From positions 1 to 32,383 of the IMG/VR virus record IMGVR_UViG_2861069343_000002: a stretch of 32,383 nt of DNA, one strand, 5' to 3'. How positions within the stretch are numbered: position 1 is the stretch's first letter; each line of letters opens with the position of its first letter. Below are positions 1,392 through 26,258 of this stretch, piece after piece. Source of the stretch: a virus. Lineage: Duplodnaviria; Heunggongvirae; Uroviricota; Caudoviricetes. The translations under genes and the position numbers were made by a program. The notes beneath the pieces were generated by a model that saw only the letters and a list, made by a program, of their open reading frames with translations, ran no database searches and was not told the DNA's origin.

Positions 1392-1925
1392 TTAAAATAC
1401 GGTGAATACATCACACAGGTCCGATAAAACTTCTCGACAAACATGCCTATGATCGCTGAGCACAGAGTTTATATGCTGAAGTGTTATATACTCTTCATAC
1501 CATTCTTGTGTTACAACATTTTTCAAATTATAGAGCCTGTGAAATGACTCTTTTGCCTCCTGCGAATTAACAAATTGTTGATTATGCCCCATTAACCTCA
1601 TTAAAAACCCCTCCAAACAAAATGGTGAGGATTGAATGATTTGTATGTCTCTATTTCTAGCAGCAGATAGAGCATCAGTAGGTATTGCAAGGTCTGAGTC
1701 AATAAAAACAACTCTTTTATCAAAACTACCAGCATGGTTTATAGCAGCCATTATAGCTGATTTCGGTCCTCCACCGCCGGCATCATCTAACCTAACACTA
1801 AACCCTGCAGTCCTAGTTGTTAAGAGTCGTTTTAAACAATCAGCAAATCTTTTATCAGTAATTCCTTCGCACATCAAAAGCTTAGTTCGTTCAACTCCAC
1901 GCTTTACACGTCTGGGCTTCATCAT
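1392..1925 (-). CDS. RloB-like / TOPRIM-like small protein, partner of the upstream AAA ATPase
   Basis: 177 aa. N-terminal basic stretch then LLMCEGITDKRF (CEGxT[ED] motif as in RloB/DUF4276), later VVFIDSDLA acidic motif. ATG overlaps the ATPase stop (ATGATGA junction at 1922..1925), indicating translational coupling. Confidence 0.5.
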   Translation of the reverse strand: MMKPRRVKRGVERTKLLMCEGITDKRFADCLKRLLTTRTAGFSVRLDDAGGGGPKSAIMAAINHAGSFDKRVVFIDSDLAIPTDALSAARNRDIQIIQSSPFCLEGFLMRLMGHNQQFVNSQEAKESFHRLYNLKNVVTQEWYEEYITLQHINSVLSDHRHVCREVLSDLCDVFTVF

Positions 1926-3196
1926 AAGTCTGGTACTCCTCCAAAAGCACCAGCTAAATATTTAGCCGCAATATTATCGTCGACTCGCGCCTCACTGGAT
2001 GGAAAATCATCAAGTCGATAACATTCACTTCTATTGAATTTTTTCTCAGTAATCAACACACGGTACTTACCCAAATAATTTATCAATTCGGGTTTATGAC
2101 AAGTAAAAATTAACTGTGTATGTAACGGGTTTGTTTCTTTACTGATAAACAACTCTAATATAGGTTTAACCATATGTGGGTGCAAATCATCACCAAGTTC
2201 ATCAATAAAGCATGCTGTTCCTTTTTTCAGACATTGCATAATATTATGCAATCTGATAAATGCACTTTGTGTTCCAGCAGATTCGAATGCAAAGGGTAAC
2301 TCAAACTTGGAACCATCTTCTTTTTCATGAATACCATTTATAATATAATAAACATCCTTCTCACCGTTTATATCAACTTTCTCTTCTTTTTCTATAGTTA
2401 TATCATCTAAACCTAAATCCCATTTGCGTAAAATATTTTTTACACTTTTAAAGGCTACTGGATCTTTATATAAATCCTCCGCTGTCGCACCTAAATCTCC
2501 ATAATCATAGCTATACCTTCCCATAGCATTTACATTAGTAGTACTGCTCATTTTTTCGGCTATATCTATAGCCAAAGGAACACCTACACGGCGAGCTGCA
2601 GAAATTATACTTGTATTAGCAGGAGTTCTCTTACCCTCTAAAAGACCTAAAGGAAAAAGTTCTGCTTTTTCAACATAATCATATTTAATTGTTTTTAACA
2701 GTTCTTCAACTTCTTGATGACTAAAATCATCACTACAATTATTTAACTGTTTCTCATAATTTTCTTTATCCAACTTCCTTTTAAAAACATAGATATTTTT
2801 ATTTTTCTCATTTCTTACATACAATTCTTCTTTAATGACAAAATGGTCGCAGGCCGTAACAACATATGTGTATACTTTTCCATCTAAAACAAAACATATT
2901 TTAATCATACCTGGTTTTGTAAAAGGCCGATTAATGTTTAAATACAGATAATCAGTTACTTTTGCTGGTATAGACCAAAAAAACCAACTCAAGAAAGACA
3001 TTGGTTTAAGGAGTGTTGTCTTACCGGAGGCGTTCGCCCCCATGATAGCAGTAATCAGATTGACCTTGTGTCCATCTACATCTACCCACAGTTCTTTTTT
3101 CTTATCTTTAGCTGTAGTAGTTAGGTCTACGAACCCACCTTCATCTTCAAAGCTACCGATATTCTTAATCTCATACCAAAGTATAGCGTTAGCCAT
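1922..3196 (-). CDS. AAA family ATPase (ABC/AAA_21-like), candidate abortive-infection/defense ATPase
   Basis: 424 aa. Walker A GANASGKTT near N-terminus; Walker B plus H-loop ACFIDELGDDLHPH near C-terminus. Strong SD (AAGAGGGG) before ATG at 3196. AT-rich. Confidence 0.7.
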   Translation of the reverse strand: MANAILWYEIKNIGSFEDEGGFVDLTTTAKDKKKELWVDVDGHKVNLITAIMGANASGKTTLLKPMSFLSWFFWSIPAKVTDYLYLNINRPFTKPGMIKICFVLDGKVYTYVVTACDHFVIKEELYVRNEKNKNIYVFKRKLDKENYEKQLNNCSDDFSHQEVEELLKTIKYDYVEKAELFPLGLLEGKRTPANTSIISAARRVGVPLAIDIAEKMSSTTNVNAMGRYSYDYGDLGATAEDLYKDPVAFKSVKNILRKWDLGLDDITIEKEEKVDINGEKDVYYIINGIHEKEDGSKFELPFAFESAGTQSAFIRLHNIMQCLKKGTACFIDELGDDLHPHMVKPILELFISKETNPLHTQLIFTCHKPELINYLGKYRVLITEKKFNRSECYRLDDFPSSEARVDDNIAAKYLAGAFGGVPDL

Positions 3197-3297: not shown

Positions 3298-3388
3298 AAA
3301 TCGATAACGGCCGGAAATCATTCAATTCCCGCACTATCGAACGTTCACCAGCCAACCGCAAAACGTTATTGCATACAACGTTTCTGCG
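3298..3388. repeat. Direct repeat copy B (~90 bp), diverged copy of 1041..1130
   Basis: See copy A. Lies between the stf stop and the ATPase promoter. Confidence 0.6.
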
Positions 3389-3586
3389 GCATAATCCCAA
3401 TGATTACTCCCTGACAGGATTTGCAGGCCACTCAATATCAGGTGCAGTTGATGTATCAACACGGTTCAGCAACACCCGATACTTTTTCCAGGCTTCCAGC
3501 AACAAGGTTTCTTTCTCCGTTGCGATCTCCAGCTCAACAACAGTCTGAACGTACCGGGAACAGCCTCCTTCAGAGCTTGAAGGATA

Positions 3587-6500
3587 TCAATGTTCGCTTC
3601 CTGTTAACTGCCGGACAAGTGCAACCAGTTCGCTTACCTGATTTTCCAGAGTGCTGATCCGGGTGTCTGCTGTTGCCAGATTTTCACGTAGCGTTGTGTT
3701 TTCCTCTTCCAGCGCGGTAACGCGATCATCTGTTTCACGGGCGACCTGAACAAGTAAACCCGTCACGGCGGCGTAGTCAACATTAAGATAGCGCGTTTCT
3801 TCGCGTAGCTCGTTGCCGTCAACGGTCGGGCCTTGCAACTCTTCACCGTAATGAGTAAACGATCCCACAGCTTCTGGTATCGCCTCCATTACTTCCTGTG
3901 CAATAACGCCAGCATAAGGCATCCCGTTTTCCCTGAGCGTGTAGGTGTATCCGTTCATTTTACGGATTGCTTTCGTCGCGTCGCTGATAACGAGAATATC
4001 GTCTTTAAGGTCGCGGTCTGATGACTGATTCAGCGTTGTGCAATTAATAGCGCCATTTACATCAAACAACTGGCCTGCTGACGTTTTTTGCGCATAAAAC
4101 AGATACGCAGCAGACGTGCCAACCTCAAAAACGTTTTGTCGAGTACTGGAACCCCACACCCTGATACCAACTGGTAGTTCTGAATTACCTGAATTAAGTA
4201 AAGCAAAACGATTGCCAGTCCCTGTTTGTTTTCTAATTACTAAATCGGCAGTTGAGTTAACCTCATCTTTGTTGATGGTTAGCGCCTGTGCTGTAGCACC
4301 GTTGACAGTACCGCTTAGTAGTTGCACCGCGCCATCATCGCCATTTAACAGCACTTGAGCGCTGCTTCTGTGGTTTTTAAGGCACAACATTTTTCCCGTG
4401 TTTTTCGATGTACCTACTGACCACGCCGAATTGGTTCCAGTGCTATCAACACCGCGCACAGCACAATTCATACTACTGTAATCTGACGTACTCCCCAGCA
4501 CATCAACACGCCCGCCGCCTAATTTTGATGGAGTCGTCGAGGTTAACGACCTGACGGTTACATCCTGATTCCATCCTGAAACAACTACCTGACTCCACTC
4601 CGTCCAACTTCCATTGACAACAAAGCGAACGTATATGCGTTTTGTGTCGCTGCCAATCAGCGTTTGCATGATCGCATAATCTGAACCCGTAGTTTTACGA
4701 GTAGATTCTACACGTAGCAAAAAGTTACCGCTTACGCCGTCAGGCTTATTGGTAATATATGCACCACCTGCGACAGTTTTGCATTGATAGTATTTAACAG
4801 ATCCAGCCACTGTATTAGCAATGATCAAGTCGTTTAAATCAATAGTCTTGTTGTCAATGGTTTCCGGCTCGATAGATCCCGCCATACCTGCGTTAAATGT
4901 GGCAAGGTCAGAAAAGGTTGTTTTACCGCCTACCGTCACCCCGCTATCGAGTTTTGCTTGTGTGATTACTTTGCTGTTTTTTGTGTGGTCAGAATAACTA
5001 CCAAAATACAAATCACCGTCACCAGCTATACCCAGGTATTTTTGATCAACATCATCAACCTTAAACCCAATGGACAAGTTTTTAATTGTGTTGTTGCTCG
5101 TTAAAACCAAAGGCGTATGCTGAGATCCTTTGATGCTTACCGTAGTGTTATCGGAACTGGTGCTTGTGTTTGCAAATTCTGCGGTGGCTGCGCTGATTTT
5201 GTAAGTTATTTTTAGATTGCGGGCCTCAACCCTCCCGTCGTGGCGAACAATAAAATCACCACTTGATTCACCTTTTGTGTTTTTCGCCCTGATGTGGATT
5301 TCGCCAAGTGATTCGTTGTTTTCAGGCGACCAAACAACGCCGCGCTCGCTTCCGTCGTTGTTCATGAACCACAGATGAGCGGTTCCTTTTGCTGATTTTA
5401 GCCTGATAGATGGCGTTTCTTTCAATATATCAAGATCACCAGACATAACATCGCCGGATTTTTTCACCTGCGCATCGTTAGTTACGTTGCCAAGTCCAAC
5501 ATCCGATTTCGACGGCTTGTTTGCCGAGCCGTATAGCTCATTGATGCTAAAAGTCCCGTTGTTAAGCCGGGCATCGTTGCCGGCATAGATCTTAATCTTC
5601 GCGGTTGAGTAGTCGATATTGATCGCTGACCACGTATCGCCGCACCGCGAGAATATACCAGAACCGTGGCTATAAATGGTCGCCGTGCTTCCGGTCGGCT
5701 TATCACCGCGCCAGAAATGACCACCTTTGTCACGCAGAGCTTTTAAGATCTCTACATCGCTCATCTTGCCGTTTGTTGATATCCCGCTACCGCCAAGACC
5801 GAAAGCGCCTGTAAGCATAGCATTAGAAAGACCCAAATCTGCTTTAGTCGGCTTGTTTAACTGGTCGTAAATCCTTACAACGGGGCTTTCAACATATCCA
5901 GAAGGCGCGGCGGTTTGCTTAACAAATCCGTCTGGAATGTATAATTCCGTGCGTGCCGTCTGCGCCAGTACCGCAACCTTTGCGCCGTTGATAAATGCAC
6001 GCTGGAAGGCCCAAACCTCAATAAAGCCATCATCTTTAACCAGGCCGTAACGCATTTGCATGCTATTGATTAGCCCGGTTGGCCCTAAACGGCGTATACT
6101 CAGGTAACGAGATACATTATCAGCAGTAAGCGAAGAAGGCAGACCGCGCGCCGAGATCTCGATAAAGTCAATGTTTCCGTAAGGGGAGCCGTAGTCACCG
6201 CCGTTAGTAACCATTAGCGTTACATGGCAATTGTTGCTTCCGGGATCGGAAAGTTTCGCGATCTTTATGTAAAAAGACTCATTACCAGTAACAACGGGCC
6301 AATCGTATTGCGTCATCGGGCTGACGAGTCCCCCGACCTTGTCGAGATATTCTTTCGCCTTGTTCTCTGACGCTTTAGCGTTGGTTTCGCTGACCTTTGC
6401 TGCTGACTCACTATTTTTCGCGTTGGTTTCTGATTTTTTGGCTGCTGTCGCGGAATTTGCCGATGCAGTTTGTGAGTCTGCTGCCGCCTGTGCGCTGTTA

Positions 6501-7345
6501 TCCGCATTCATCTCAGACGTTTTTGCGGCCTTCGCGGAATTTCCTGCCGCCGTTGCCGAGGAAGCTGCACTGCCGGCGCTCGAGGCTGCGCTCGTTTCTG
6601 ATGATTTTGCCGCCACTTTTGAAGCCGACGCATCCCGGGCTGAGGTGGCAGCTTCTGACGCTTTCGTGGTCGCGGTGGATGCAGAAGTGGCCGCAGATTT
6701 TTGTGATGCTGCGGCATTCGTTTCTGACGTTTTCGCTGCACCGGCACTGGTGGCTGCCGCGCTTTTTGAAGACTCTGCAGCGGCAGCACTTTTTGATGCT
6801 TCAGTAGCCTTTGTTGATGCCGTTCCTGCGCTGGAAGACGCTGACTGAGCCGACGACGCGGCCTGTCCGGCTGACGTGCTGGCTGCGCGTGCGGAGTCCG
6901 CAGCATCAGTCGCATGGGTTGCCGCCTCACGGGCTGATGTGCGGGCATCACTGGCTGACTTCTTCGCGGCTGCCGTGTTCTGTGCCACTGCGGACGCGTT
7001 ACGCGCCACCTCTTCCACCATCAGTTCAAAGCGGCGCAGTGCCTCCGGACGGACATCATCCTCCGTCATGGCACCGAGAAAATCATTCAGCGTACCCGGT
7101 TGTGAGTCTTCATACACGGTGATGGTCCCGGCATGCGATGGCGGGAAGCCTTCCACCAACAGAATAACGCTGTACTGACCGTACTCAACGTCCATGCTGT
7201 AACGCCCGGCTTCATCCGGGTTTTCTGAGGCCACTGTGTTCACCACCACCGTGGTGCTGTTACGTTTTGCTTTCAGCTGGATTGTACAGTTCTGTACCGG
7301 TTTACCTGCACCGTCTTTCAGTACACCTGAAATCTTTACTGCCAT
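3587..7345 (-). CDS. stf: Side tail fiber protein (lambda Stf-like N-terminus, A/S/T-rich repeat region, C-terminal peptidase S74 intramolecular chaperone domain)
   Basis: N-terminus MAVKISGVLKDGAGKPVQNCTIQLKA matches lambda Stf N-terminus as recalled. Long Ala/Ser/Thr-rich repetitive segment. C-terminal SDRDLKDDI...NGYTYT...GVIAQEV motif of self-cleaving S74 chaperone. ATG at 7345 preferred over the in-frame GTG at 7351. Confidence 0.85.
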   Translation of the reverse strand: MAVKISGVLKDGAGKPVQNCTIQLKAKRNSTTVVVNTVASENPDEAGRYSMDVEYGQYSVILLVEGFPPSHAGTITVYEDSQPGTLNDFLGAMTEDDVRPEALRRFELMVEEVARNASAVAQNTAAAKKSASDARTSAREAATHATDAADSARAASTSAGQAASSAQSASSSAGTASTKATEASKSAAAAESSKSAAATSAGAAKTSETNAAASQKSAATSASTATTKASEAATSARDASASKVAAKSSETSAASSAGSAASSATAAGNSAKAAKTSEMNADNSAQAAADSQTASANSATAAKKSETNAKNSESAAKVSETNAKASENKAKEYLDKVGGLVSPMTQYDWPVVTGNESFYIKIAKLSDPGSNNCHVTLMVTNGGDYGSPYGNIDFIEISARGLPSSLTADNVSRYLSIRRLGPTGLINSMQMRYGLVKDDGFIEVWAFQRAFINGAKVAVLAQTARTELYIPDGFVKQTAAPSGYVESPVVRIYDQLNKPTKADLGLSNAMLTGAFGLGGSGISTNGKMSDVEILKALRDKGGHFWRGDKPTGSTATIYSHGSGIFSRCGDTWSAINIDYSTAKIKIYAGNDARLNNGTFSINELYGSANKPSKSDVGLGNVTNDAQVKKSGDVMSGDLDILKETPSIRLKSAKGTAHLWFMNNDGSERGVVWSPENNESLGEIHIRAKNTKGESSGDFIVRHDGRVEARNLKITYKISAATAEFANTSTSSDNTTVSIKGSQHTPLVLTSNNTIKNLSIGFKVDDVDQKYLGIAGDGDLYFGSYSDHTKNSKVITQAKLDSGVTVGGKTTFSDLATFNAGMAGSIEPETIDNKTIDLNDLIIANTVAGSVKYYQCKTVAGGAYITNKPDGVSGNFLLRVESTRKTTGSDYAIMQTLIGSDTKRIYVRFVVNGSWTEWSQVVVSGWNQDVTVRSLTSTTPSKLGGGRVDVLGSTSDYSSMNCAVRGVDSTGTNSAWSVGTSKNTGKMLCLKNHRSSAQVLLNGDDGAVQLLSGTVNGATAQALTINKDEVNSTADLVIRKQTGTGNRFALLNSGNSELPVGIRVWGSSTRQNVFEVGTSAAYLFYAQKTSAGQLFDVNGAINCTTLNQSSDRDLKDDILVISDATKAIRKMNGYTYTLRENGMPYAGVIAQEVMEAIPEAVGSFTHYGEELQGPTVDGNELREETRYLNVDYAAVTGLLVQVARETDDRVTALEEENTTLRENLATADTRISTLENQVSELVALVRQLTGSEH

Positions 7346-7354
7346 ATTCACCCC

Positions 7355-7383
7355 ACAAAAAAGCCCGCCTGAACCGGCGGGCT
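7355..7383 (-). terminator. Rho-independent terminator downstream of lom
   Basis: Minus-strand hairpin AGCCCGCC-GGTTCA-GGCGGGCT followed by TTTTTT. Confidence 0.5.
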
Positions 7384-7409
7384 GTCATAACACTGTGTTA
7401 CCTGGCTAA

Positions 7410-8009
7410 TCAGAACTTATAACCAACACCCACGATGAAACCGTCAGTGCGCCAGTTGCCACTGCCGGAGCCTTCATAAGCGACATCAACGGCCACGGAT
7501 TCGGTCGGGTTAAACTGCACGCCAGCTCCCCACGCCAGAGAGGTGTTACTGTGGCGAGCGTCATCACTTCCGGTCAGCACGTCGTGCGTTTTTCCCTTGT
7601 TGTCAGTTACGCGGAGATAATCCCCGGAAAAAGTCGACACACGGCTGTAAGCCATACCCGCCATCGCATACGCGCTGAACCATTCATTCACGCGCACAGA
7701 CGGCCCCGCCATTACGCTGAACCAGCGGTTACGAACGGAATCCTCATGCCAGCGGGTATCGCTGTAACGGGTAAGCTGGCGATTCTTGTCTCCTGCATAG
7801 CTGAATGACGTCACCAGCCCCAGTGTGTCCGTAAACTCATAACGGTATTTCACGTTAATCCCGTTCAGATCATCGCTGCCGGGAACGTTGGTCCGGGCAT
7901 GAAGATACCCCGCGCTCAGCGTGGACTGATGTTCAGATGCCCATGCAGGCGCACCGGATACGGCCAGACAAATGGCTGCGGACAAAATGGCGGCATAAAG
8001 TTTACGCAT
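7410..8009 (-). CDS. lom: Lom-family outer membrane protein (Ail/Lom beta-barrel)
   Basis: 199 aa; signal peptide [24 protein letters not shown]; beta-barrel-like alternating aromatic pattern ending ...[10 protein letters not shown]; located between J-like gene and stf as in lambda. SD GAGAGGT before ATG. Confidence 0.85.
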
Positions 8010-8033
8010 AATTACCTCTCGCTTTTCTGCAAT

Positions 8034-8057
8034 AAAAAAGGCGCCAGAAATGGCGCC
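8034..8057 (-). terminator. Rho-independent terminator between J-like ORF and lom
   Basis: Minus-strand hairpin GGCGCC-ATTTCT-GGCGCC followed by TTTTTTATT. Confidence 0.45.
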
Positions 8058-8077
8058 CGCATATGGGTTATGAAAAT

Positions 8078-9604
8078 TCAGCTAATCGTGATACCTGCTG
8101 TGGATTTTTTCATCACCACAACCAGCAAATCACTGATACTGGCTGTGGGATACCAGTCATTTACCAGCCACGCTGATACCGAAAACTCCAGCGTCATGTG
8201 ACCGCGACCAGCAGGCATATCAATAACACCTGTATAAACCAGCGTATTATCCAGCGCGGTACGGTTATAAATTTCAGCACCATTTTTCTTCACTATCAGG
8301 CGGCATGACGAATAAATATCGTTATTCTCCCGCTCATGTTTAGCGCCACGAAACGCCACCGCGGGAATAACAATCTGCCGGTCAAACGGCTGATCGTCAT
8401 AAACCCTGACGGTAATGGTCCCTGATGGCCACCGCTCCGGTGCACGGGAGTCCCGGGGGAAAGCTTTGCCCACTGTTTTAACGAGATCGCCTTCAATCTG
8501 GTTCGCAGACAGTTTTCCCAGAACCCGACAGTTTTCATTTATCGTGACATTGTTGAGCGTCCCGGCGTTCGCATTCACACTGCCACTGATATCCGCATTT
8601 TTCGCCGTCAGTCGCCCATCCGGTGTAAGGGAAAATGCAGGAGGATTACCGCCGCTAGTAATGGTGGGAGCCGTCAGATATTTCAGGAACACGTCGTTCA
8701 TGAATATCTGATCACCCTGACCAACAAACATCGGTTTTGTGTTGCCATTTGCAGGATTAATCATCGCAATCCTGTCTGCCGCCAGCAGCACCTGACTCTG
8801 CATGCCGTCGGGGGTGTTCTCAATACCGGCACCGATACCCGCAATATAAAGGCGTCCATCCTGCATCTGCTGCAGCTTCACAGCCCACATGCTGTTCAGA
8901 TTATTATTTGTATCAACCTGAACCTTCTGTATCTGCTGGATCGCTGCACTCTGGTCTTCCAGTTTCTTATTGACGGTCTGTGTGATTTCATTGCTGACAT
9001 CCGTAATGGATGCCTGCTCTTTAAGCTGACGGATAAACGCCACTTTCTGTCGGGTAGCCTCTTCCTCAGCCTGCGTAAGAACACGGGTTTTCGCCGTAAC
9101 CTCAGAAATCAGCGCCAGATAATCCTGCTGACCAATCCCGCCACTGTTTCTGGCCTGTCGGATCTGCTGCTGAATACGCTGTAATTCCTGCAGCCCCGCA
9201 CTGGCCTGTTTCACACTGTCAATCTGACGATAAAACGCAGCAGCTGCTTTATCCTGAGCCTCCGCCAGAGCCATGGCCTGCGCCTGTTCCTCGCGCATTT
9301 TCTGGCTCAGTGCCTCCATACGCTGGCGGGTTTTCTCCACCTCGCGGGCCATGCGTTCATGAGCCTGTGCGTTCTTCTCCACCGTCTGCGCATGGACGGA
9401 TGCGGCTGTTGCAGCCGAAGACGCCGCCTGCGTTGTCTGCCGGGCGGCCTGAGTCTGACGCTCCATAAAACGCTGCATACGGGCAGAAGACCGTTCTGCA
9501 TCGCTGGCTGCACCATTCAGAAGGTTTTTGATACGGGGAATTTCATTTTTAAACTCTGCCGCATCAATCCCCAAATCAATGACCAGGTTGGCTATCTGGT
9601 CCAT
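8078..9604 (-). CDS. Short tail ORF: tape-measure-like N-terminus (lambda H-like) continuing into a host-specificity J-like C-terminal region; probable in-frame deletion remnant
   Basis: N-terminus [19 protein letters not shown] resembles lambda H N-terminus (recalled); coiled-coil Q/A-rich middle. Position directly upstream of lom is where J ends in lambda. No M/L/K/I genes present. ATG at 9604 with SD GGAGGTG. Confidence 0.5.
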
Positions 9605-9905
9605 AACGCACACCTCCGGAAATACCTTCCCCAAGATGCATCAGTTCTTCGTCCGTTCGCTCCGGTATCCCGTTCTCTTCCGGTAAAAGGCTGAAATCAG
9701 CCACCGCAGCATCACTGCTGCCGGACACCATTCTCACGATCAATGCCTTCAGCGAGGCAAACTGCGCATCCATCCACACATCACTGAAGCTCTGCATCCG
9801 GAAATAATCGCCCCACTCACCAAGCTCAGTGGCCGACATTTCCGACAGCATCCGCCGCCAGTCTGCCCGCCGGAACTCCCGGGCAAGCCGCATGACAAAC
9901 TGCAT
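9576..9905 (-). CDS. Tail assembly chaperone T-frame segment (expressed as G-T fusion by -1 frameshift in lambda-like phages)
   Basis: ORF in -1 frame overlapping the 3' end of the G-like gene, immediately upstream of the tape-measure-like ORF; conserved G/GT arrangement. Confidence 0.5.
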
Positions 9906-9913
9906 TTCCCGCG

Positions 9914-10303
9914 TCAGGACTTTTCCGGCGTCAGCACCTCATGCTCCAAATCCCCGGCATTATCAATGGCCCCCATACCGCTCAGCGACAGAACCATCTC
10001 CGCCCCCGCACCCAGGGCATCATACGACCATGTTGTAATAACGGATGCGTAAAGCGTCTCAACATCCTGAGACTGTTCCGCATTCCACAGTGAGCGGGAA
10101 ACCAGCCAGGCATTGATATCCATCCCCATCCGCAGAAAAGCAATCTGTCGTTCAGCCTCCGGCAGTTCTCCCTCCCCGGCATCAAACTTTGCCGTTCGCT
10201 GCTGAACAAACATCAGATATTCAATTCTCTGCAGCCCGGACAGCTCACTGAGCACCACGGACTGTTTTTCATAATTAAACGTGTCCTGTTTCAGAAACAT
10301 CAT
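9914..10303 (-). CDS. G: Tail assembly chaperone G
   Basis: Position after major tail gene V; MMFLKQDTF...VVLSELSGLQRIEYL resembles lambda G (recalled); SD GGTGGAG before ATG at 10303. Confidence 0.6.
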   Translation of the reverse strand: MMFLKQDTFNYEKQSVVLSELSGLQRIEYLMFVQQRTAKFDAGEGELPEAERQIAFLRMGMDINAWLVSRSLWNAEQSQDVETLYASVITTWSYDALGAGAEMVLSLSGMGAIDNAGDLEHEVLTPEKS

Positions 10304-18686: not shown

Positions 18687-18712
18687 CAACTTTCAATTAA
18701 AGGAACGAAAAC

Positions 18713-19873
18713 ATGACTACACTCAAAGAACTCAAAGAAGAGCTTGCTCAGATACAAGATGAACACGCTAAGAACAGAAAAAAGGCTGAAATTGCAGCTT
18801 TAACCGCTTCCGCTGACAATGAAATCAGACTCGCTCAGAGAAACATTGGATACAATGTACGTGAGTGGACCGTTGAAGTCATTATTCAAAAGTATGGTGA
18901 TAATATTGAAAATGACAAAAACGAGCTTTTTATTCCAGATTATCAACGTGATTACAAGTGGGATACAAAAACAGCCTCTCGCTTTATAGAAAGTATTCTA
19001 TTAGACTTTCCAATACCTTACCTTTACATTGCTGATGTATTTAATGAAGACCCTGAATTAGATGGTAGGGTAGAAATCATTGATGGTTCACAACGGATAC
19101 GCTCTATTTATTATTTTTGGAACGATCAATTTGAGTTAAAGGATTTGAAAGAGCTTAAAAGTTTAGAAGGTTTCAAATTTTCAGATCTTTTAGCTAGCCG
19201 CCAAAGAAGATTTTTAAGAGCTTCACTAAGATTTATTGAGTTGAAAGGTGATGTTGAGGAACAACATAGAAGAGATTTATTTGAAAGGATCAACTCAGGT
19301 GTTAAAAGATTAGAAGCGATGGAAGTGAGGCATGGCTCAGATGCTGCTACCTCAATGTTCTATAAAGATGTTGTGACCCCATGCTCAACAAACTCACTTT
19401 TTTCCCAACTAGCTCCATTATCAGACCGGAAACGGTCGAATGGCGATCATCGTGAGTTAGTTTTGAGATTTTTTGCATATTTAAATGATTTAGAAAACTA
19501 TAAGGGATTTGTCCGTCCCTTTATTGATAATTATTTAAATGAACAAGCAGCAGCTGTGACTACTCAACAAGATGTTGATAATTTTAAACATGATTTTGAA
19601 ATGATGCTTGCTTTTGTTGCTACCCATTTCCCTATTGGCTTTAAAAAGACCGCAACAAGTAAAACCACCCCACGAGCCAGATACGAAGCCATTGCCGTGG
19701 GAACTGCACTTGCATTAAAAACTAACCCACAACTCCAGAGTCCAGCCGTACCTGTAGGTGAATGGCTATTTGAAGAGGAATTTGAAACACTTGTTACTGC
19801 TGATAGTGCAAACAATACCAGCCAGCTAAAAAACAGAATCTTTTACGTTAAAAATAAGTTGTTAGGGATTTAA
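18713..19873 (+). CDS. DUF262 (ParB/Srx-like, GmrS-type N-terminal domain) protein
   Basis: 386 aa; hallmark motifs FIPDYQRDYKW and IIDGSQRIRSI (DGQQR variant); no DUF1524/HNH C-terminal domain evident; AT-rich. Confidence 0.75.
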   Translation: MTTLKELKEELAQIQDEHAKNRKKAEIAALTASADNEIRLAQRNIGYNVREWTVEVIIQKYGDNIENDKNELFIPDYQRDYKWDTKTASRFIESILLDFPIPYLYIADVFNEDPELDGRVEIIDGSQRIRSIYYFWNDQFELKDLKELKSLEGFKFSDLLASRQRRFLRASLRFIELKGDVEEQHRRDLFERINSGVKRLEAMEVRHGSDAATSMFYKDVVTPCSTNSLFSQLAPLSDRKRSNGDHRELVLRFFAYLNDLENYKGFVRPFIDNYLNEQAAAVTTQQDVDNFKHDFEMMLAFVATHFPIGFKKTATSKTTPRARYEAIAVGTALALKTNPQLQSPAVPVGEWLFEEEFETLVTADSANNTSQLKNRIFYVKNKLLGI

Positions 19874-19875
19874 AA

Positions 19876-20565
19876 ATGAGTCTAATTGATTTACGAGATG
19901 AATATGAAGAAAGAGCAAGAGACATTATGGAACTGCTTTCTCTTGCATCATCTATAGAGATTCATACTCAGCAGTTAGATCCGCAAGCGCATCAAGATGA
20001 AATAGAATCTAATATCCTAAGGGTAAATATTTTAAAATCATCCGTTCATATGATGCTATATAATCAAGTTGAAAATACTGCCAGAGGTTGCATCGAGTCA
20101 ATTTATGATCATTTACAAGATAATGAGGTGAATTACGCATCACTCAGGGAGAAGCTTCAAGTAAATATATTACATAGAATTGTTTCAGATAATGAAACAG
20201 GGCAATCCCTTTATAAAAAGATAGGCACTGACATTTCCAAAAGAATAATTTCAGCCTCATTGAATATTCGTAAAGAATTCAATGGTAATGTTTGCAAGCC
20301 TGTATTACACAAAATAACGCAGGCTTACGGAATAACTATCGCAAACTCACCTGAATGTAGAAATGGTATTGACTTAGACTTGCTTAAGGATATCAGAAAC
20401 GAACTCGCGCATGGAAGTACTAGCTTCTCTAAAAAGGGGCAAATTGACCCCTTAGAAGAAGTTAAGTCTAGAGCAGAGAGAGTTGATCTATATCTTCGTT
20501 TATTAATAAACTCAACTGAAGATTATATTATCTCTAACGGATATTTATCCCCTCAACATGCCTAA
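19876..20565 (+). CDS. HEPN-domain protein (Rx4H motif), putative RNase effector coupled to the DUF262 gene
   Basis: 229 aa; RNELAH matches HEPN R-x4-6-H; starts 2 nt after the DUF262 stop with SD AGGGA; 3' end overlaps convergent MTase gene by 32 nt. Confidence 0.65.
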   Translation: MSLIDLRDEYEERARDIMELLSLASSIEIHTQQLDPQAHQDEIESNILRVNILKSSVHMMLYNQVENTARGCIESIYDHLQDNEVNYASLREKLQVNILHRIVSDNETGQSLYKKIGTDISKRIISASLNIRKEFNGNVCKPVLHKITQAYGITIANSPECRNGIDLDLLKDIRNELAHGSTSFSKKGQIDPLEEVKSRAERVDLYLRLLINSTEDYIISNGYLSPQHA

Positions 20566-21574
20566 CAAACGTTCTCCCTATTACTTGGCCAATTATAGGG
20601 GGAACAGCATTACCAATCATCGTTCCTAACTTTTGGAATGAAAAAGGCGTATTTTTTCCAATAAATTTATAATCCATAGGAAAAGATTGTAAAATAGCAG
20701 CTTCACGCAAAGTTATTGCTCTATTTTGCTCAGGATGTCCGAATCGCCCATTACCATATCCATAACATTGGGTAGTTATTGTAGGACTAGTATCGTCCCA
20801 AACCATCCGTCCATAAACACTTTTATAGGTAGCACCTGAATGCTTTTTATGGCAATCCGCTCTAATTTCTTCAGGCCAATCATCCCACGTACCACCTGGT
20901 AAAGAGTGCAAGATTCGTTTAAGGTTAATATCCCTTAATTTAGGCGAACGATGCAATGGATCACTTTCGAGTTTCTCCCCTGCACCTATTTTTGGCAACT
21001 GACCAATAGCATCCTTTACTGTAACTTTACGGCTTACTTTTTTTTGATCAAGGCTGATTGGCCCCAATATGGACCCAATTAGAATTAATCTACGTCTATT
21101 TTGAGGCAAGCCATACTCGGAACATTTTACAACGTCGTACCACAGATGATACCCAAGAGTCTTTAATACACTAACAAACTCTTCAAAAACCTTATGATTT
21201 CTAAGTTGAGGAACATTTTCCATAGTCACAAGCTCTGGCATGACATCACTTACAATCCTCTGAAACTCAGATAAAAGACGCCACTTTGTATCATCTTTTC
21301 TGCTATTTGGATTACGATACTTGGAAAACGGTTGGCAAGGGGCACAGCCTGCAAGTAATCTAATATTTCCTTCCTTGAACATAGCAGACACATCGCTGGA
21401 TTGCAGTTCAGTAACTGACTGGTTAATGAACTTCGTTAAGGGATTATTGCTCTCAATAGCGAAACGGCAGGACTCATCAATATCAATGCCATGAGAAACT
21501 TCAATCCCGGCTTTTTTTAGCCCAAAAGTTAAGCCCCCTGCGCCACAAAAAATGTCTACTGCTTGAATGTTCAC
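20534..21574 (-). CDS. DNA cytosine-5 methyltransferase (Dcm-like), first gene of the late operon
   Basis: Motif I DIFCGAGG, motif IV GCAPCQPFS (catalytic PC), motif VI ENV, motif VIII QNRRR, motif X GNAV; GTG start at 21574 with SD GGAGAA. Confidence 0.85.
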   Translation of the reverse strand: MNIQAVDIFCGAGGLTFGLKKAGIEVSHGIDIDESCRFAIESNNPLTKFINQSVTELQSSDVSAMFKEGNIRLLAGCAPCQPFSKYRNPNSRKDDTKWRLLSEFQRIVSDVMPELVTMENVPQLRNHKVFEEFVSVLKTLGYHLWYDVVKCSEYGLPQNRRRLILIGSILGPISLDQKKVSRKVTVKDAIGQLPKIGAGEKLESDPLHRSPKLRDINLKRILHSLPGGTWDDWPEEIRADCHKKHSGATYKSVYGRMVWDDTSPTITTQCYGYGNGRFGHPEQNRAITLREAAILQSFPMDYKFIGKNTPFSFQKLGTMIGNAVPPIIGQVIGRTFVRHVEGINIR

Positions 21575-21600
21575 AAGATTCTCCGTTACTTTACCCTGGT

Positions 21601-22024: not shown

Positions 22025-23020
22025 TCAGGCCAGCACGCCAATTGCCAGCGCACGATCGATAAAACGAAATATCAGCTCCAGCTGGGAGCCATACATCTCT
22101 TCAAATGCCACGGTATCTGCATGCAGCTCGTCGTGATGCTTTCTGCACAAAGGCAACACAAAGAGGTCATGCGCTTTTGTACCCATTCCACCCTGACCGT
22201 GACCTATCAGGTGGTGGGGATCATCAGCAGGCTTTCCACAACATGCACACGGCTGTGTCTTAACCCAGCGCGTGTACTTTTCATTAACCCAGCGGCGACG
22301 TTTTGGGCGTAACATAAAAGACTCCGGCGACTCCGGATCCACTTTCAGCGCCAGCACCTTTTTCGCCTTATCCTGGATGATGCTGGTAGCAGGAACCGAA
22401 GGCACAAGGTCACTTTCCCGGGTGACAGACGGCACAACAGGCTTCGGTAATCTCAGTGCCTTACGGGCTGCACTTTCCGGTAAGGCATCCGCCAGGTCAT
22501 TACGAATCAGCCACCAGCACAGTTCCGGCATTGTCACAACGTGACTGTCATCAAAACCGAGATCCCGACGCACAACAGACAACACCCAGCGGGCACAGTT
22601 ATCCGTTGCCATTGATTCCAGCCGTTCCGTGAACTGATCACGCAGCTGGTTATCGCAGTGCCAGCACAGACGGATTGCACCCGGAGCGTGTCGCATTGTG
22701 GTCATGTTCTCGCTGTGCCAGTCGGAATGAGGCCACTGGCAGCCTTTTTCACGAAGTAACCAGCTTTCAAGACATTCCACGCCACCAGCACGACGGATCA
22801 CTGCCTCATTGCGGAACACGGCCCAAACGGCAGGATCATCCGCCAGCGGTTGTGACGCCGCGGGAACGGCACCACTGGCGAAAGATGAATAATGCTCCGG
22901 CTCAGGCTCCAGCAGGACACGCCCCTGCATAAACAGGGGCATCAGCTCTGAACCGGGCCTGAACAATACGATCCCCATACGCGGGGCAATTTCAGGGGTC
23001 AGTAGTGCTCTCACGGTCAC
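22025..23020 (-). CDS. DUF968 protein (YdfU-like) with C-terminal HNH-like zinc motif
   Basis: C-terminus QPCACCGKPADDPHHLIGHGQGGMGTKAHDLFVLPLCRKHHDELH; GTG start at 23020 (alternative ATG 22978). Confidence 0.65.
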   Translation of the reverse strand: MTVRALLTPEIAPRMGIVLFRPGSELMPLFMQGRVLLEPEPEHYSSFASGAVPAASQPLADDPAVWAVFRNEAVIRRAGGVECLESWLLREKGCQWPHSDWHSENMTTMRHAPGAIRLCWHCDNQLRDQFTERLESMATDNCARWVLSVVRRDLGFDDSHVVTMPELCWWLIRNDLADALPESAARKALRLPKPVVPSVTRESDLVPSVPATSIIQDKAKKVLALKVDPESPESFMLRPKRRRWVNEKYTRWVKTQPCACCGKPADDPHHLIGHGQGGMGTKAHDLFVLPLCRKHHDELHADTVAFEEMYGSQLELIFRFIDRALAIGVLA

Positions 23021-23021
23021 C

Positions 23022-23369
23022 TCAATGAACGGTATCGAGCAGCTTTAACAGCTCAGGGACCAGTTTTTCCGCCTGGCGAGTCAGGCACAAAATCACCCGG
23101 GAATCGTTAGTGCCGACATAGAAATTGCGCACAGGTCTGGTTTCACGAACTGGTTGTGGTTCCGGCTCCTGCGCTCTCTCAGTCAGGCGCGGGAAATGTC
23201 TGCGTGTATCCCCTTCACAACGGTGAGCCACACGCCCACTCTGACGTAACTTGCTTGCTGACTGCAGAACGCGCTGCCGTGAGTAACCTGCAAAAGCATC
23301 CGCAATGTCTCCGGAAGTACAGCCCGGATGGGCTTCAATGAATTTCTGAACTTCATTCAAAAGACTCAT
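23022..23369 (-). CDS. Hypothetical prophage protein
   Basis: 115 aa from ATG 23369 (SD GGGGGTGA); position between replication gene and DUF968. Confidence 0.4.
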   Translation of the reverse strand: MSLLNEVQKFIEAHPGCTSGDIADAFAGYSRQRVLQSASKLRQSGRVAHRCEGDTRRHFPRLTERAQEPEPQPVRETRPVRNFYVGTNDSRVILCLTRQAEKLVPELLKLLDTVH

Positions 23370-23371
23370 GC

Positions 23372-24313
23372 TCACCCCCTGAATCCTGCCGGGATCTGGC
23401 TGTAGTCCACGCTGTCGTAACTGGATTTGAAATACGGGTCTTCGCGTTTTTCTGTGTATGTGCTGATGGACGGCGATAAGCGCAGGGAAAGCTCATCCCA
23501 TTTTTCCCGCAGCTTCGACGGGCTGAGCACGTTACGGCACCAGAACGGATCGCGGCTGACGCGGCTGTACATCTCGCAGATTTGTTTGTGAGTACGACCA
23601 TCCTGCACACACATCAGGCGAATTTCGTTTGCCCAGGCTGTCCAGTTCGGTTCTTTGGGACGAACCACCTCGCCGTCACATTCGGCGGCCTGCTCGTACA
23701 GGGCAATGATTTTTTTCCAGAGCCACTGTGCGCAGGTCAAATCATCCTGCGTTCCCCACTGGCGCTTTTTAGGGCTGAATACAACCGCATCAGGATGGCG
23801 AGTTAAAAAATCCTGTTCAGCCGTCTGCGTGTCCGGTTGCGAAGCGTCCGGACGAGAAGGTTTTTTATCTGACGGATCATGTTTTGATTTTACTGACGGA
23901 TCCCCGCCAGATTCTGACGGGTGAAAACCCGCTTTTTTGCCAGATTTCGACGCATCAAATTTTGACGTGTCAGATTTTGATGCGTCAGATTTTGACGGGT
24001 CAGAATCTGACAGTTGAGAAAATGCCGCTGCCTGAAGCTTCGCAACGTTAAGCTGATAAACATTCGACGCATTGCGGTTACCCTGGCGACGCGCCTTACG
24101 CGTTAACCAGCCTTCTGCTTCCAGCCGTGCGATAGCCGTTCTGACGGTACTCATCCCCGCGCCAATCTGACGGGCAATAGTTTCAATTGATGGCCAGCAC
24201 ACACCTTCGTCATTACTGAAATCAGCCAGGCGGGCCATAATTGCCACGCTGGATAATTTCATGCCTGACGCAGCGCAACCATCCCATACATAGCCGGTTA
24301 ATTTAGTGCTCAT
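23372..24313 (-). CDS. Replication initiator (lambda O-like function) with winged-helix N-terminus and iterons inside the coding sequence
   Basis: N-terminal HTH/winged helix (SIETIARQIGAGMSTVRTAIARLEAEGWL); central SKSDASKSDTSKFDASKSG repeats encoded by tandem approximately 15-bp DNA repeats; SD AGAGGT before ATG 24313. Confidence 0.6.
   Translation of the reverse strand: MSTKLTGYVWDGCAASGMKLSSVAIMARLADFSNDEGVCWPSIETIARQIGAGMSTVRTAIARLEAEGWLTRKARRQGNRNASNVYQLNVAKLQAAAFSQLSDSDPSKSDASKSDTSKFDASKSGKKAGFHPSESGGDPSVKSKHDPSDKKPSRPDASQPDTQTAEQDFLTRHPDAVVFSPKKRQWGTQDDLTCAQWLWKKIIALYEQAAECDGEVVRPKEPNWTAWANEIRLMCVQDGRTHKQICEMYSRVSRDPFWCRNVLSPSKLREKWDELSLRLSPSISTYTEKREDPYFKSSYDSVDYSQIPAGFRG
23890..24013. 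repeat. Iteron array (putative phage replication origin) inside the initiator gene
   Basis: Tandem approximately 15-bp units (CAGATTTCGACGCAT, CAAATTTTGACGTGT, CAGATTTTGATGCGT, CAGATTTTGACGGGT, CAGAATCTGACAG) plus upstream CAGATTCTGACGGGT. Confidence 0.55.
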
Positions 24314-24661
24314 GACCGACCTCTATTTCCCTGAATTTACGACGAAACTGTTCGAGCGGGCTGAAGCACTCATGCTCATAGCCTTCACGGAGGTAGATAA
24401 CCCGTTGTGTTTCCGGCTCCCAACGAATGACTCTGACGGGCACTCCGTAGTGATCTTTGAACCAGCGGTTAACTTGTCGCAAAGGACTGTCTCCTTCTGC
24501 CGGTTGAAATCCCCCACAGCCCACTCAGCAAAGCTGTGGGTTACAATTTCCCTGTCACCTGGTACATTTACTGCATAGCAATACTCCACCTTCGCTTTTC
24601 CACCCGGTACAGGAAGCGCAATCAGTTGCGAGCGACGGTAGTGTGTTGTTAAACTGTTCAT
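24303..24661 (-). pseudogene. Small early gene split between two overlapping frames at a G5 tract (frameshift mutation or programmed frameshift)
   Basis: ORF 24661..~24500 (N-terminal part, ATGA-coupled to CII-like gene) and ORF 24524..24303 (C-terminal part, overlaps initiator start) overlap at GTGGGGGAT (plus-strand C5 at 24511..24515); one extra G would fuse them into a ~126 aa ORF. Confidence 0.3.
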
Positions 24662-25215
24662 GCGTTAGTTTCTCCACAACCAGAAGCAATCGACGCCACG
24701 ACGCCCGGAGCTGCACACTCGCGGGCGTCATTACTTTCTGAAACGCAAAAAATTTTGTAGACAAGTGCTGCATGCTCCTGCAGCTTCGAAATTGAGAGGT
24801 ACAGCTCGTCGTTAATTGCTGTCTTCTCATGCGGTTCCACTACACCGTCTTCGATTGCCGAACGAATCTGTTTTGAATAACTGCCGATCTGTTCAATGAC
24901 TTCCAGTAAACGCTGGTTAATATCGGCATTGTCCACATCCTCGACGTCAGGAAGAGACACAAAGACGCCATTTGCAGACTGCGCCACAGCGTCGGCAATG
25001 AAGTGAGTGCCACCAGCACGTTGTAAAATCATTGCCCATCCCAGCGGGAAAATCTGATCGCCATCGGCACGAAGGCGGTTAAATAATGCGTTCTCTGTTA
25101 CATCCAGCCACTCAGCAGCTTCAGCGTAACCCCCCGGCAACGCCGCGATAGTTTTTCTGACAGCTTTCACGTACCACTCAGGCTGTTTTTCCACTTTCCA
25201 GTGATGATTACCCAC
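24658..25215 (-). CDS. CII-like early regulatory protein (phage 186 CII-like), hypothetical
   Basis: 185 aa, GTG start with strong SD AGGAGGT; immediately downstream of cro-like gene; loose resemblance to 186-type CII. Confidence 0.4.
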
Positions 25216-25468
25216 GGCTTACCTCCTGTTCCTGTGGTTTAAACCCATTCTGGTTTTGGCTAGATTGAAAACGTGCCGGATAAAGAATCTGCATTTCGCT
25301 GATTTCACCCTTAAAAAAATTGGCCAGACGTTCTGCAAGATCGATAGATGGAATTTGTTCCAGTCTTTCAATACGACTCAGCGTCGCTGGATTGACCTGA
25401 ACGCCAGCAGCAACATGCTGCAAAGTAAATCCGTGCGCCTTACGCACATTCCGTAATGGTGATTGCAT
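25208..25468 (-). CDS. Cro-like HTH (XRE family) regulator
   Basis: 86 aa; HTH GFTLQHVAAGVQVNPATLSRIE; divergent from CI across operator region; SD GGAGG before ATG 25468. Confidence 0.7.
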   Translation of the reverse strand: MQSPLRNVRKAHGFTLQHVAAGVQVNPATLSRIERLEQIPSIDLAERLANFFKGEISEMQILYPARFQSSQNQNGFKPQEQEVSRG

Positions 25469-25565
25469 ATAACCTCCACATATTGCGTGATAAGCATATT
25501 ATTTCACGCAAATATTTTGCGCAAGTTGATTTGCTTAACGCGCAATAAAGAAATGTAATAAACGC
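25469..25565. promoter_or_regulatory. Immunity operator/promoter region (oR-like) with divergent promoters
   Basis: Repeated half-sites TTGCG/CGCAA (TTGCGTGA, TCACGCAA, TTGCGCAA, TTGCTTAACGCGCAA). Candidate pR on minus strand: TTGCGC-N17-TAATAT. Candidate pRM on plus strand: TTGCTT-N17-TGTAAT ending about 7 nt before the cI ATG (possibly leaderless). Confidence 0.55.
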
Positions 25566-26258
25566 ATGAACATAGGAAACCGAGTCAGACAACTTCGCCA
25601 GGCGAAGAACATGAAAATCGCCGATCTCGCTGAAGCAATAGGAGTGGATGCGGCGAATATCTCACGCCTGGAAACAGGTAAGCAGAAACAATTCACTGAA
25701 CAAGCCCTGAGTAATATTGCCAGGAGCTTAGGTGTTGATATTGCTGATCTCTTTACCTCAGACGTCAAAAGTAATACTGTATGTAAAAACAGTATTAGTG
25801 AGGATGTTGCGCAGGTGAAGGATGTATTCCGTATTGAAATGCTGGATGTCAGTGCCAGTGCGGGAAATGGCCTTATCCAGGGCGGTGATGTCATTGATGT
25901 GATTCATGCCATTGAATACAGAACTGATAATGCTGTATCGATGTTTGGCGGACGGCCAGCCAATCACATTAAAGTTATCAACGTTCGTGGGGACAGTATG
26001 TGTCCAACCATTGAGCCAGGAGATCTCATCTTCGTTGATGTCAGTATCAATCAGTTTGATGGAGATGGTATCTATGTATTTGGTTTTGATGATAAAATTT
26101 ATGTCAAACGACTGCAAATGATACCTGACAAACTACTGGTGATTTCTGATAACCAGATTTACCGTGAATGGGGAATTACCAGCGAAAATGAACACCGGTT
26201 TATGGTCTTTGGAAAGGTCTTAATCAGCCAGTCACAAACCCTTAAGCGACACAATTAA
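25566..26258 (+). CDS. CI-like repressor (N-terminal HTH plus C-terminal S24 LexA-like peptidase domain)
   Basis: HTH IADLAEAIGVDAANISRLETGK; C-terminal GDSMCPTI (Ser nucleophile) and VKRL (Lys); 230 aa. Confidence 0.85.
   Translation: MNIGNRVRQLRQAKNMKIADLAEAIGVDAANISRLETGKQKQFTEQALSNIARSLGVDIADLFTSDVKSNTVCKNSISEDVAQVKDVFRIEMLDVSASAGNGLIQGGDVIDVIHAIEYRTDNAVSMFGGRPANHIKVINVRGDSMCPTIEPGDLIFVDVSINQFDGDGIYVFGFDDKIYVKRLQMIPDKLLVISDNQIYREWGITSENEHRFMVFGKVLISQSQTLKRHN

Follow-up and report, generated by a model that had tools for sequence, protein, structure and literature searches.

A lambda–T5 hybrid side tail fiber gene with a C-terminal S74 chaperone in a decayed Escherichia coli prophage

INTRODUCTION

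Two described tail fibers serve as points of reference for the gene discussed here. In Ur-lambda, the side tail fiber protein Stf begins with a collar domain (residues 1–94, modeled as residues 1–91 plus a linker, 92–101) that sits around the gpV/gpM junction of the tail; residues 102–393 make up the trimeric coiled coil at the proximal end of the side fiber, and the distal half has been described as T4 gp37-like and OmpC-binding (PMC12617516). In phage T5, the tail fiber protein pb1 ends in a self-cleaving chaperone: Ser1264, activated by Lys1269, cuts the Thr1263–Ser1264 bond when the trimer upstream of it has interdigitated correctly. A chaperone that has not been cleaved off masks receptor binding, and uncleaved protein fails to compete for the receptor (PMC4690869). 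Here, we describe a gene that joins a Stf-type N-terminus to a pb1-type shaft and a C-terminal chaperone of the peptidase S74 family. The gene lies on the minus strand of a 32,383-nt stretch of tailed-phage DNA, the IMG/VR record IMGVR_UViG_2861069343_000002 from position 1 to position 32,383, which we refer to as “the window”.

The gene is an intact, ordinary lambda–T5 hybrid side tail fiber gene, and the identical protein is already public. Its product is very probably a homotrimeric lambdoid side tail fiber built from modules of differing ancestry, with a built-in chaperone. All of these components are known, and the exchange of fiber modules between temperate and virulent phages is established; our literature searches returned no paper dissecting this exact lambda/T5/S74 hybrid. 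We establish directly the integrity of the open reading frame (ORF), its domain content, homologies, and junctions, the conservation of the catalytic dyad, and the deletions in the surrounding prophage.

ONE CONTINUOUS READING FRAME

The ORF listing of the window contains a single continuous frame from a GTG at 7351 to the stop codon at 3587–3589. The ATG at 7345 gives a protein beginning MAVKISG…, the same opening as lambda Stf, and is positioned 5 nt downstream of a Shine-Dalgarno-like motif (GGGGTG), directly past a terminator hairpin between lom and the fiber gene. This ATG, not the GTG at 7351, is the predicted true start, being the biologically sensible choice. The coordinates given in a first-pass annotation, made by a model from the letters and a list of ORFs, are exact (3587–7345, i.e., one frame of 1,252 codons plus a stop). 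The records of phages Ayreon and mEp460 have terminators annotated at the corresponding lom/stf position.

Pfam recognizes both ends of the protein. The family phage_tail_N (PF08400) matches residues 1–134 over its full length (242 bits against a cut-off of 26.6, E = 2e-72), and Peptidase_S74 (PF13884) matches residues 1109–1160 (45.5 bits against a cut-off of 22, E = 9e-12, positions 1–57 of 58 in the hidden Markov model, HMM). An NCBIfam search gave no match for the fiber protein or for the remnant of the tail fiber assembly gene, tfa, that follows it. The domain, motif, and composition patterns of the gene are not due to chance. On the minus strand, the genes are ordered J (a C-terminal fragment), lom, stf, and tfa relic, as in the lambda-type arrangement J-lom-stf-tfa. 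The protein would be named Stf for its predicted attachment and its position, not for its tip or mode of assembly.

THE S74 CHAPERONE AND ITS PREDICTED CLEAVAGE SITE

The S74 signature at the C-terminus, which the first-pass annotation had recognized from the sequence alone, is confirmed by the Pfam match, by all three expected motifs, namely SDRDLK (residues 1109–1114), NGYTYT (1131–1136), and GVIAQEV (1146–1152), and by an intact Ser/Lys dyad. Position 1 of the Peptidase_S74 HMM falls on Ser1109. When SDRDLK is aligned with T5 S1264-DARL-K1269, the S-x4-K spacing is identical. Furthermore, Ser1109, Asp1110, and Lys1114 are invariant in 25 of 25 homologues (51–97% identity). Cleavage between Ser1108 and Ser1109, with Ser1109 as the nucleophile and Lys1114 as the base, is a well-founded prediction by analogy with pb1. 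Arg1069 and Glu1074, both upstream of the predicted cleavage site, are likewise invariant in the 25-homologue alignment and may be considered candidate folding-sensor residues.

Profile searches with the chaperone matched phage S16 gp37 (6f45) and the P22 gp26 coiled coil; a weak match to Pfam APC_N_CC, at residues 1209–1250, fell under the cut-off.

The endosialidase of phage K1F carries an S74 chaperone. Engineered fusions of the lambda Stf N-terminus to the K1F tail fiber function as side fibers on lambda particles (PMC11338833), and therefore an architecture with Stf at one end and an S74 chaperone at the other is known to be workable.

THE LAMBDA-TYPE ANCHOR AND COILED-COIL STALK

The first 94 residues align with residues 1–94 of the lambda tail fiber (PDB 9e7m/9mgh; phmmer E = 1e-51) with ~6 substitutions, i.e., ~94% identity. 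The first-pass annotation had assigned ~100 residues to a lambda Stf anchor; the anchor is borne out by the Pfam and PDB matches, but the lambda-like part as a whole was put too short, since homology to lambda continues to residue ~281. DNA homology (blastn, 86% identity) spans 7544 to 6504, from inside lom to codon 281, where it ends. At the protein level (blastp), lambda orf-401 is 75% identical over residues 1–348.

The collar is followed by a stretch, residues 112–327, spanned by 30-residue windows with at least 55% Ala, Ser, and Thr; the composition of residues 135–345 is 33% Ala, 22% Ser, 11% Thr, and 9% Lys. Several features point to a heptad pattern. BLOSUM autocorrelation reaches z ~9 at lags of 7, 14, and 28 residues relative to shuffled sequences; the hydrophobic/Ala signal peaks at 3.49 residues; and the insertions and deletions that set this sequence apart from those of lambda and mEp460 measure exactly 7 and 14 amino acids. 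In the DNA, direct repeats in this region are short and degenerate, with spacings that are multiples of 21 nt. Given the heptad period and the coiled coil formed by residues 102–393 of Ur-lambda Stf, the Ala/Ser/Thr-rich stretch is read as a coiled-coil stalk: what was called a low-complexity repeat is, as predicted from its periodicity, a degenerate heptad coiled coil like that of Ur-lambda. Residues 102–340 would measure ~35 nm if fully helical (calculated at 1.5 Å per residue). A DNA tandem repeat was also considered and rejected, because the pattern is a degenerate heptad at the protein level and Tandem Repeats Finder, run on 3500–7400, found no tandem array at a score of ≥30.

The composition noted in the first-pass annotation, and the extra ORFs that it called spurious, were found; its separate repeat module was not. 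Lambda homology covers most of the repeat, and therefore the repeat belongs to the lambda module. Between 6313 and 7178, there are four antisense ORFs of 100–169 amino acids and two alternative-frame sense ORFs (64 and 147 amino acids), while the remaining 2.7 kb of the fiber gene has only three, of 62–83 amino acids. These long alternative frames are most simply explained as a by-product of GCN/TCN/ACN/AAR codon usage. A matching antisense ORF, orf206b, is annotated at this position in the lambda reference.

THE T5-TYPE SHAFT, THE LEFT CROSSOVER, AND THE DISTAL TIP

The largest part of the fiber, missed in the first-pass annotation, is homologous to T5 pb1. In a blastp comparison, residues 166–952 align with pb1 residues 32–819 at 57% identity, including the Ala/Ser/Thr heptad segment; the part assigned to pb1 homology spans residues ~245–952. 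DNA homology to the T5 ltf gene (blastn, 73% identity) covers 1.4 kb, from 6613 to 5234, starting at codon 245. The shaft is further supported by phrog_24369 and by tblastn matches in T5-like Salmonella and Klebsiella phages. Residues 1–31 of pb1 have no counterpart in the fiber, which has the lambda collar at its N-terminus instead, and BLAST similarity to pb1 ends at residue 952 (pb1 residue 819).

Lambda-type and T5-type DNA homologies overlap between codons 245 and 281. Protein alignments place a coiled-coil motif, SSATAAGNSAKAAKTSEMN, within these codons, nearly verbatim in both lambda and T5. The segment is the left crossover, which lies inside a coiled-coil motif common to both lineages.

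Beyond the shaft, the protein becomes variable. Among the 25 homologues, the mean pairwise identity is 0.49–0.57 in the distal tip, as compared with 0.82–0.85 in the chaperone. Such a contrast is typical where the folding device stays constant while the receptor-binding part attached to it diversifies. Residues 910–1252 are a module in common with phage mEp460, with 80% identity overall and up to 100% in the chaperone. The last ~50 residues before the predicted cleavage site resemble a shaft element of T4 gp34 (profile match to 4uxe and 5nxf, E = 6e-9).

THE TFA RELIC AND THE RIGHT JUNCTION

Lambda homology restarts 38 nt past the fiber stop codon. From 3549 to 3354, the DNA is 87% identical (blastn) to the last 146 nt of lambda tfa and 51 nt downstream; the translation is 79% identical to residues 147–194 of lambda Tfa and matches positions 86–130 of 131 in Pfam Caudo_TAP (E = 1e-19). 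Upstream of this relic there is no coding sequence and no proper start, with ~146 N-terminal codons gone, and RefSeq labels it an incomplete tail fiber assembly protein. Thus, the statement in the first-pass annotation that the locus has no separate tfa is right with respect to a functional gene and wrong with respect to sequence, because 48 C-terminal codons persist at 3404–3550. An S74 domain is present, and the only tfa-like sequence downstream of the fiber gene is a start-less relic, which does not refute the first-pass annotation.

Ayreon and mEp460, which are viable phages, have this relic downstream of their stf stop codons too, and therefore it is an old scar of cassette replacement rather than decay particular to this prophage. 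It is the right-hand lambda-homology arm, marking the right recombination junction at 3549. The features described above, together with the neighboring lom gene and deletion scar discussed below, are listed in Table 1.

Table 1. Positions of the fiber gene, its predicted parts, and its immediate neighbors in the window
Feature	Coordinates	Strand	Residues or length	Remarks
Complete side tail fiber coding sequence	3587..7345	−	1252 aa + stop	Lambda Stf / T5 pb1 / S74-chaperone mosaic
Collar (anchor) domain	7064..7345	−	aa 1-94	Predicted to dock on the tail at the gpV/gpM junction (docking site from PMC12617516)
A/S/T/K-rich heptad-repeat region	6326..7042	−	aa ~102-340	Putative trimeric proximal coiled-coil stalk
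Crossover zone	6504..6613	−	aa 245-281	Lambda-type and T5-type homology overlapping; motif SSATAAGNSAKAAKTSEMN
Shaft	4490..6325	−	aa 341-952	Homologous to T5 L-shaped tail fiber pb1 (pb1 ~205-819)
Variable distal tip	4022..4489	−	aa 953-1108	Presumed receptor-binding part
S74 intramolecular chaperone	3590..4021	−	aa 1109-1252 (144 aa)	Extreme C-terminus; ends in a long coiled-coil helix
tfa relic	3404..3550	−	Last 48 codons + stop	From a lambda-type tail fiber assembly gene; without N-terminus or proper start
Hairpin + T-run between lom and fiber gene	7362..7383	−		Intrinsic-terminator-like, closing lom
lom	7410..8009	−		Ail/Lom outer-membrane beta-barrel; upstream neighbor as in lambda; Pfam Ail_Lom E 1e-119; phrog_108
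In-frame H'-'J fusion	8078..9634	−	518 aa	Tape-measure N-terminus (~240 aa) + J C-terminus (lambda J ~812-1163)

PROPOSED ASSEMBLY AND ITS WEAK POINTS

For the trimeric state, the cleavage, the binding of a receptor, and the recombinational rescue of the cassette, we infer the following scheme. The collar would attach the fiber as in Ur-lambda, where four trimeric fibers are carried by a ring of twelve collar copies around the gpV/gpM junction. A short linker would lead into the Ala/Ser/Thr-rich heptad coiled coil, and from there into the pb1-type shaft, presumably joined to the lambda part by recombination within the shared coiled-coil motif. The variable tip presumably binds the receptor. 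If it works like its counterparts in T5 pb1 and the K1F endosialidase, the chaperone would trimerize and, starting at the C-terminus, bring the three chains into register. Correct folding of the beta-structure upstream would then allow Ser1109, with Lys1114 as its activator, to cut the Ser1108–Ser1109 bond, and the freed chaperone would leave, unmasking the tip. The built-in chaperone would make a separate Tfa unnecessary, with the last 48 tfa codons persisting as a recombination scar. In this genome, the gene would act as a host-range cassette between lambda-homology arms, open to capture by an infecting lambdoid phage.

Several structural results weigh against this scheme. The AlphaFold2 (AF2) model of residues 900–1252 (monomer, 25 sequences) has a mean predicted local distance difference test score (pLDDT) of 63 and a predicted template modeling score of 0.34, and pLDDT falls below 50 over residues ~1102–1156, i.e., around the predicted cleavage site; a helix at residues 1191–1248 is modeled with pLDDT of 65–85. 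In a Foldseek search of the PDB with this weak model, the K1F chaperone structure 3gw6 is not convincingly recovered (E = 0.65–1.5), and the matches to T4 gp34 are weak (E = 3e-3, template modeling score of 0.16). For the shaft, the AF2 model (residues 340–952, 20 sequences of 78–99% identity) has a mean pLDDT of 39.7, and the fold is known by homology alone, to an unsolved part of pb1. Lastly, a PDB sequence search found the tip to be unlike the polymannose-binding domain of T5 pb1 (residues 970–1263; 4UW7/4UW8), and therefore the receptor cannot be read from that comparison.

PROPHAGE CONTEXT AND FATE OF THE CASSETTE

The window belongs to a decayed E. coli prophage at the tRNA-Thr beside proA. 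Strain 2024CK-00474 carries an intact sister prophage, with terminase, portal, and head genes, V-G-T, a 3,075-nt tape-measure gene, M, L, K, I, J, and lom, and then the same fiber gene and tfa relic. Relative to this prophage, the window and strain IH5 have three deletions. The first runs from the tape-measure C-terminus through M, L, K, and I to the J N-terminus, the second from Rz through terminase, and the third removes a KilA-N/RusA/LexA-like block. The first deletion left a 518-residue H'-'J fusion, with phrog_24 and phrog_11020 in its N-terminal part and NF049904 lambda_TipJ (812–1163), Phage_Tail_Tip, and Ig_GpJ_C in its C-terminal part; this fusion is the scar of the deletion that took out the tail tip genes. 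The first-pass annotation had described a lost tail tip alongside a retained lom and intact fiber, and both the fusion and the intact relative, which carries H-M-L-K-I-J here, agree with it. The gpM half of the collar docking site is thus deleted and no tail tip can be made; the prophage, which also lacks terminase, has no tail of its own on which to mount the fiber, and the fiber is an orphan in this genome.

Experiments have shown that stf/tfa homology of 88–95% allows lambda to take up sequences of Rac and Qin, which are defective prophages (PMC3945230). The flanks of the cassette described here, namely the 5' part of stf and the 3' end of tfa, are 86–87% identical to lambda and resemble those arms; therefore, recombinational rescue by an incoming lambdoid phage would be the most plausible remaining role of the cassette, by analogy with Rac and Qin.

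Other strains have followed different routes. In strain N196, where the deletion is a different one, less of the J C-terminus remains and is joined to a head protease that is itself truncated; lom and stf are kept. In IH5, the fiber gene is cut by IS1 (IH5 8101–8178; window ~4040), ~20 nt from the Ser1109 codon (4019–4021), which takes away precisely the chaperone.

ALTERNATIVE EXPLANATIONS

The persistence of an intact fiber gene in a prophage without a tail tip might suggest that the gene is under selection, being used in trans on the tails of co-resident or superinfecting lambdoid phages, or serving the host. A collar ~94% identical to that of lambda could fit other lambdoid tails, some strains hold several lambdoid loci of the lom/stf type (5 in the record of N196, for example), and the differing deletion variants (the window and IH5 on the one hand, N196 on the other) each keep the J C-terminus, lom, and stf. 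However, the window is nearly identical to sister strains, with 1 mismatch in ~28 kb relative to IH5 (from ~4041 to the window end at 32383); this places the decay in the recent past, and selection is not needed to explain an intact ORF. Moreover, the same gene is truncated by IS1 in IH5. We consider selection in trans unlikely, and regard as similarly improbable the broader idea that the 3.8-kb cassette is maintained as a ready-made host-range module, to be mounted in trans or captured via the stf-5'/tfa-3' arms. If that idea were true, the independent deletion variants that keep the J C-terminus, lom, and stf would reflect selection. Dependence of the fiber on Tfa is less probable again. Tfa could come from another prophage, or the relic itself could supply a peptide, for which there is a TTG-initiated ORF of 33 codons at 3404–3505; the Tfa C-terminal sequence is, moreover, kept downstream of the fiber in the window, Ayreon, and mEp460. 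Nevertheless, the relic lacks ~146 N-terminal codons, its conservation is explained by recent shared ancestry and its place as a recombination arm, Ayreon, which has the relic alone, could be isolated and propagated on a K-12 derivative, and S74-bearing fibers such as T5 pb1 fold without Tfa (PMC4690869). Continued need for Tfa is thus very unlikely.

Two further readings concern what the gene encodes, and we rate both as extremely improbable. RefSeq treats the locus as two genes, an incomplete N-terminal Stf pseudogene (residues 1–326) and a 909-residue “pyocin knob domain-containing S74 family peptidase” with Met344 as its first residue, and does so for the identical DNA in N196, for 2024CK-00474, and in many entries of 909, 914, or 916 residues. 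This is contradicted by the uninterrupted sequence, and we reject it: there is no stop codon or frameshift, and the frame is open in the window, in N196 (identical sequence), and in 2024CK-00474. GenBank annotates a single gene in Ayreon, mEp460, and 640R1, NCBI holds the full 1,252-residue protein, and a 909-residue product would have no tail-attachment domain. A role as an enzymatic tailspike, i.e., an endosialidase-like depolymerase, might be proposed because S74 chaperones were first described on endosialidases, and the Pfam family is named “Chaperone of endosialidase”. Searches of Pfam, NCBIfam, and the PDB nonetheless found no sialidase, pectate-lyase, or other catalytic domain, and the body of the protein is homologous to the non-enzymatic T5 pb1 fiber and to the T4 gp34 shaft element; on these search results, the depolymerase reading was rejected. 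A modular, lambda-anchored side tail fiber with its own chaperone is therefore strongly preferred.

OCCURRENCE AND ANNOTATION

At least 80% of the T5-like/chaperone cassette is present in 395 of 5,426 complete E. coli genomes, and at least 80% of window positions 3300–8100 in 394 complete E. coli genomes. The exact 1,252-residue protein (ATM25464.1 and others) is in NCBI, occurs on 14 contigs, and belongs to a cluster that has 1,260 members at 90% identity; it is called either “prophage tail fiber N-terminal domain-containing protein” or, alternatively, “peptidase S74”.

The continuous ORF is subject to a split annotation (window 3587–7345; N196 6288–10046; 2024CK-00474 6282–10040), and many of the entries of 909, 914, or 916 residues appear to share this artifact. 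RefSeq/PGAP divides the ORF where the coiled coil meets the T5-like shaft, and the “pyocin knob domain” placed within the shaft is a label from RefSeq product names only. As a result of the split, the full architecture is hidden in many E. coli genomes.

NEIGHBORING CARGO

Immediately downstream of the tfa relic, two overlapping genes occupy a low-GC block (0.31–0.40) at 1392–3196 on the minus strand. One encodes a 424-residue AAA ATPase (PADLOC AbiLi, E = 1e-65; Pfam AAA_21), the other a 177-residue partner (PADLOC AbiLii, E = 1.5e-9). By these matches, the pair looks like AbiL-type abortive-infection or defense cargo of the prophage. A 259-residue ORF on the plus strand (1–780, GC 0.33), labeled hypothetical in RefSeq, has a weak HNH_5 match at an N-terminal Cys-rich motif (E = 4e-5, under the Pfam cut-off) and may be another defense or cargo gene. 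Lastly, at ~18700–21600 (from the IH5 annotation, 22835–25696), in the late/lysis region of the prophage, a gene pair encoding a DUF262 protein and a HEPN-like nuclease lies between two DNA methyltransferase genes. This block (GC 0.36–0.42) looks like further defense-type cargo.

COMPARISON WITH KNOWN SYSTEMS

The practical importance of this gene is limited; it matters little beyond correct annotation. It is, however, a clean, well-delimited case in which fibers of temperate (lambda-type) and virulent (T5-type) origin have exchanged modules, with a coiled-coil motif at the left junction and tfa at the right. Natural hybrids of lambda Stf with an S74 chaperone could also serve as templates for lambda-based delivery particles with new receptor specificities.

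The chaperones of the K1F endosialidase (PDB 3GW6) and of Salmonella phage S16 gp37 (PDB 6F45) belong to the same Pfam family as the one described here. For S16 gp37, the motif around the scissile Ser aligns, “LNVSSDRRIKKDI” against “LNQSSDRDLKDDI”, but sequence similarity to both chaperones is low past the first ~50 residues. T5 pb1 is alike in its shaft and in its C-terminal chaperone, which is self-cleaving in pb1 and predicted to be so here, with the same S-x4-K arrangement. In contrast, its N-terminal attachment part is replaced by the lambda collar, its bullet-shaped polymannose-binding domain has no counterpart, and the two chaperones cannot be aligned by BLAST outside the motif.

The closest relatives are found in lambdoid phages. 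The stf product of Ayreon (MF807953, ATP61598.1) is 1,252 residues long, like this fiber, and 89% identical from end to end, although identity falls to 68–82% in residues ~500–950. Phage vB_EcoS-640R1 (ON470612) is 97% identical over residues 1–1092, where its record ends, and mEp460 (JQ182728) has residues 1–365 and 910–1252 in common with this fiber, whereas its middle section is unrelated. These phages correspond to the window in gene position (J-lom-stf), in the N-terminus and coiled coil of lambda type, in the S74 chaperone, and in the tfa relic. Their genes are in complete phage genomes, while the gene described here is in a prophage without tail tip genes.

Ur-lambda Stf, with its partner Tfa, shares the collar, linker, and proximal coiled coil, the position of the gene after lom, and the 3' end of tfa; BLAST found no similarity of the fiber to the distal half of the lambda protein (orf-314). 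The fiber described here differs in having no functional Tfa, with folding help predicted to be built in as the S74 domain, and illustrates how a built-in chaperone may substitute for a separate assembly gene.

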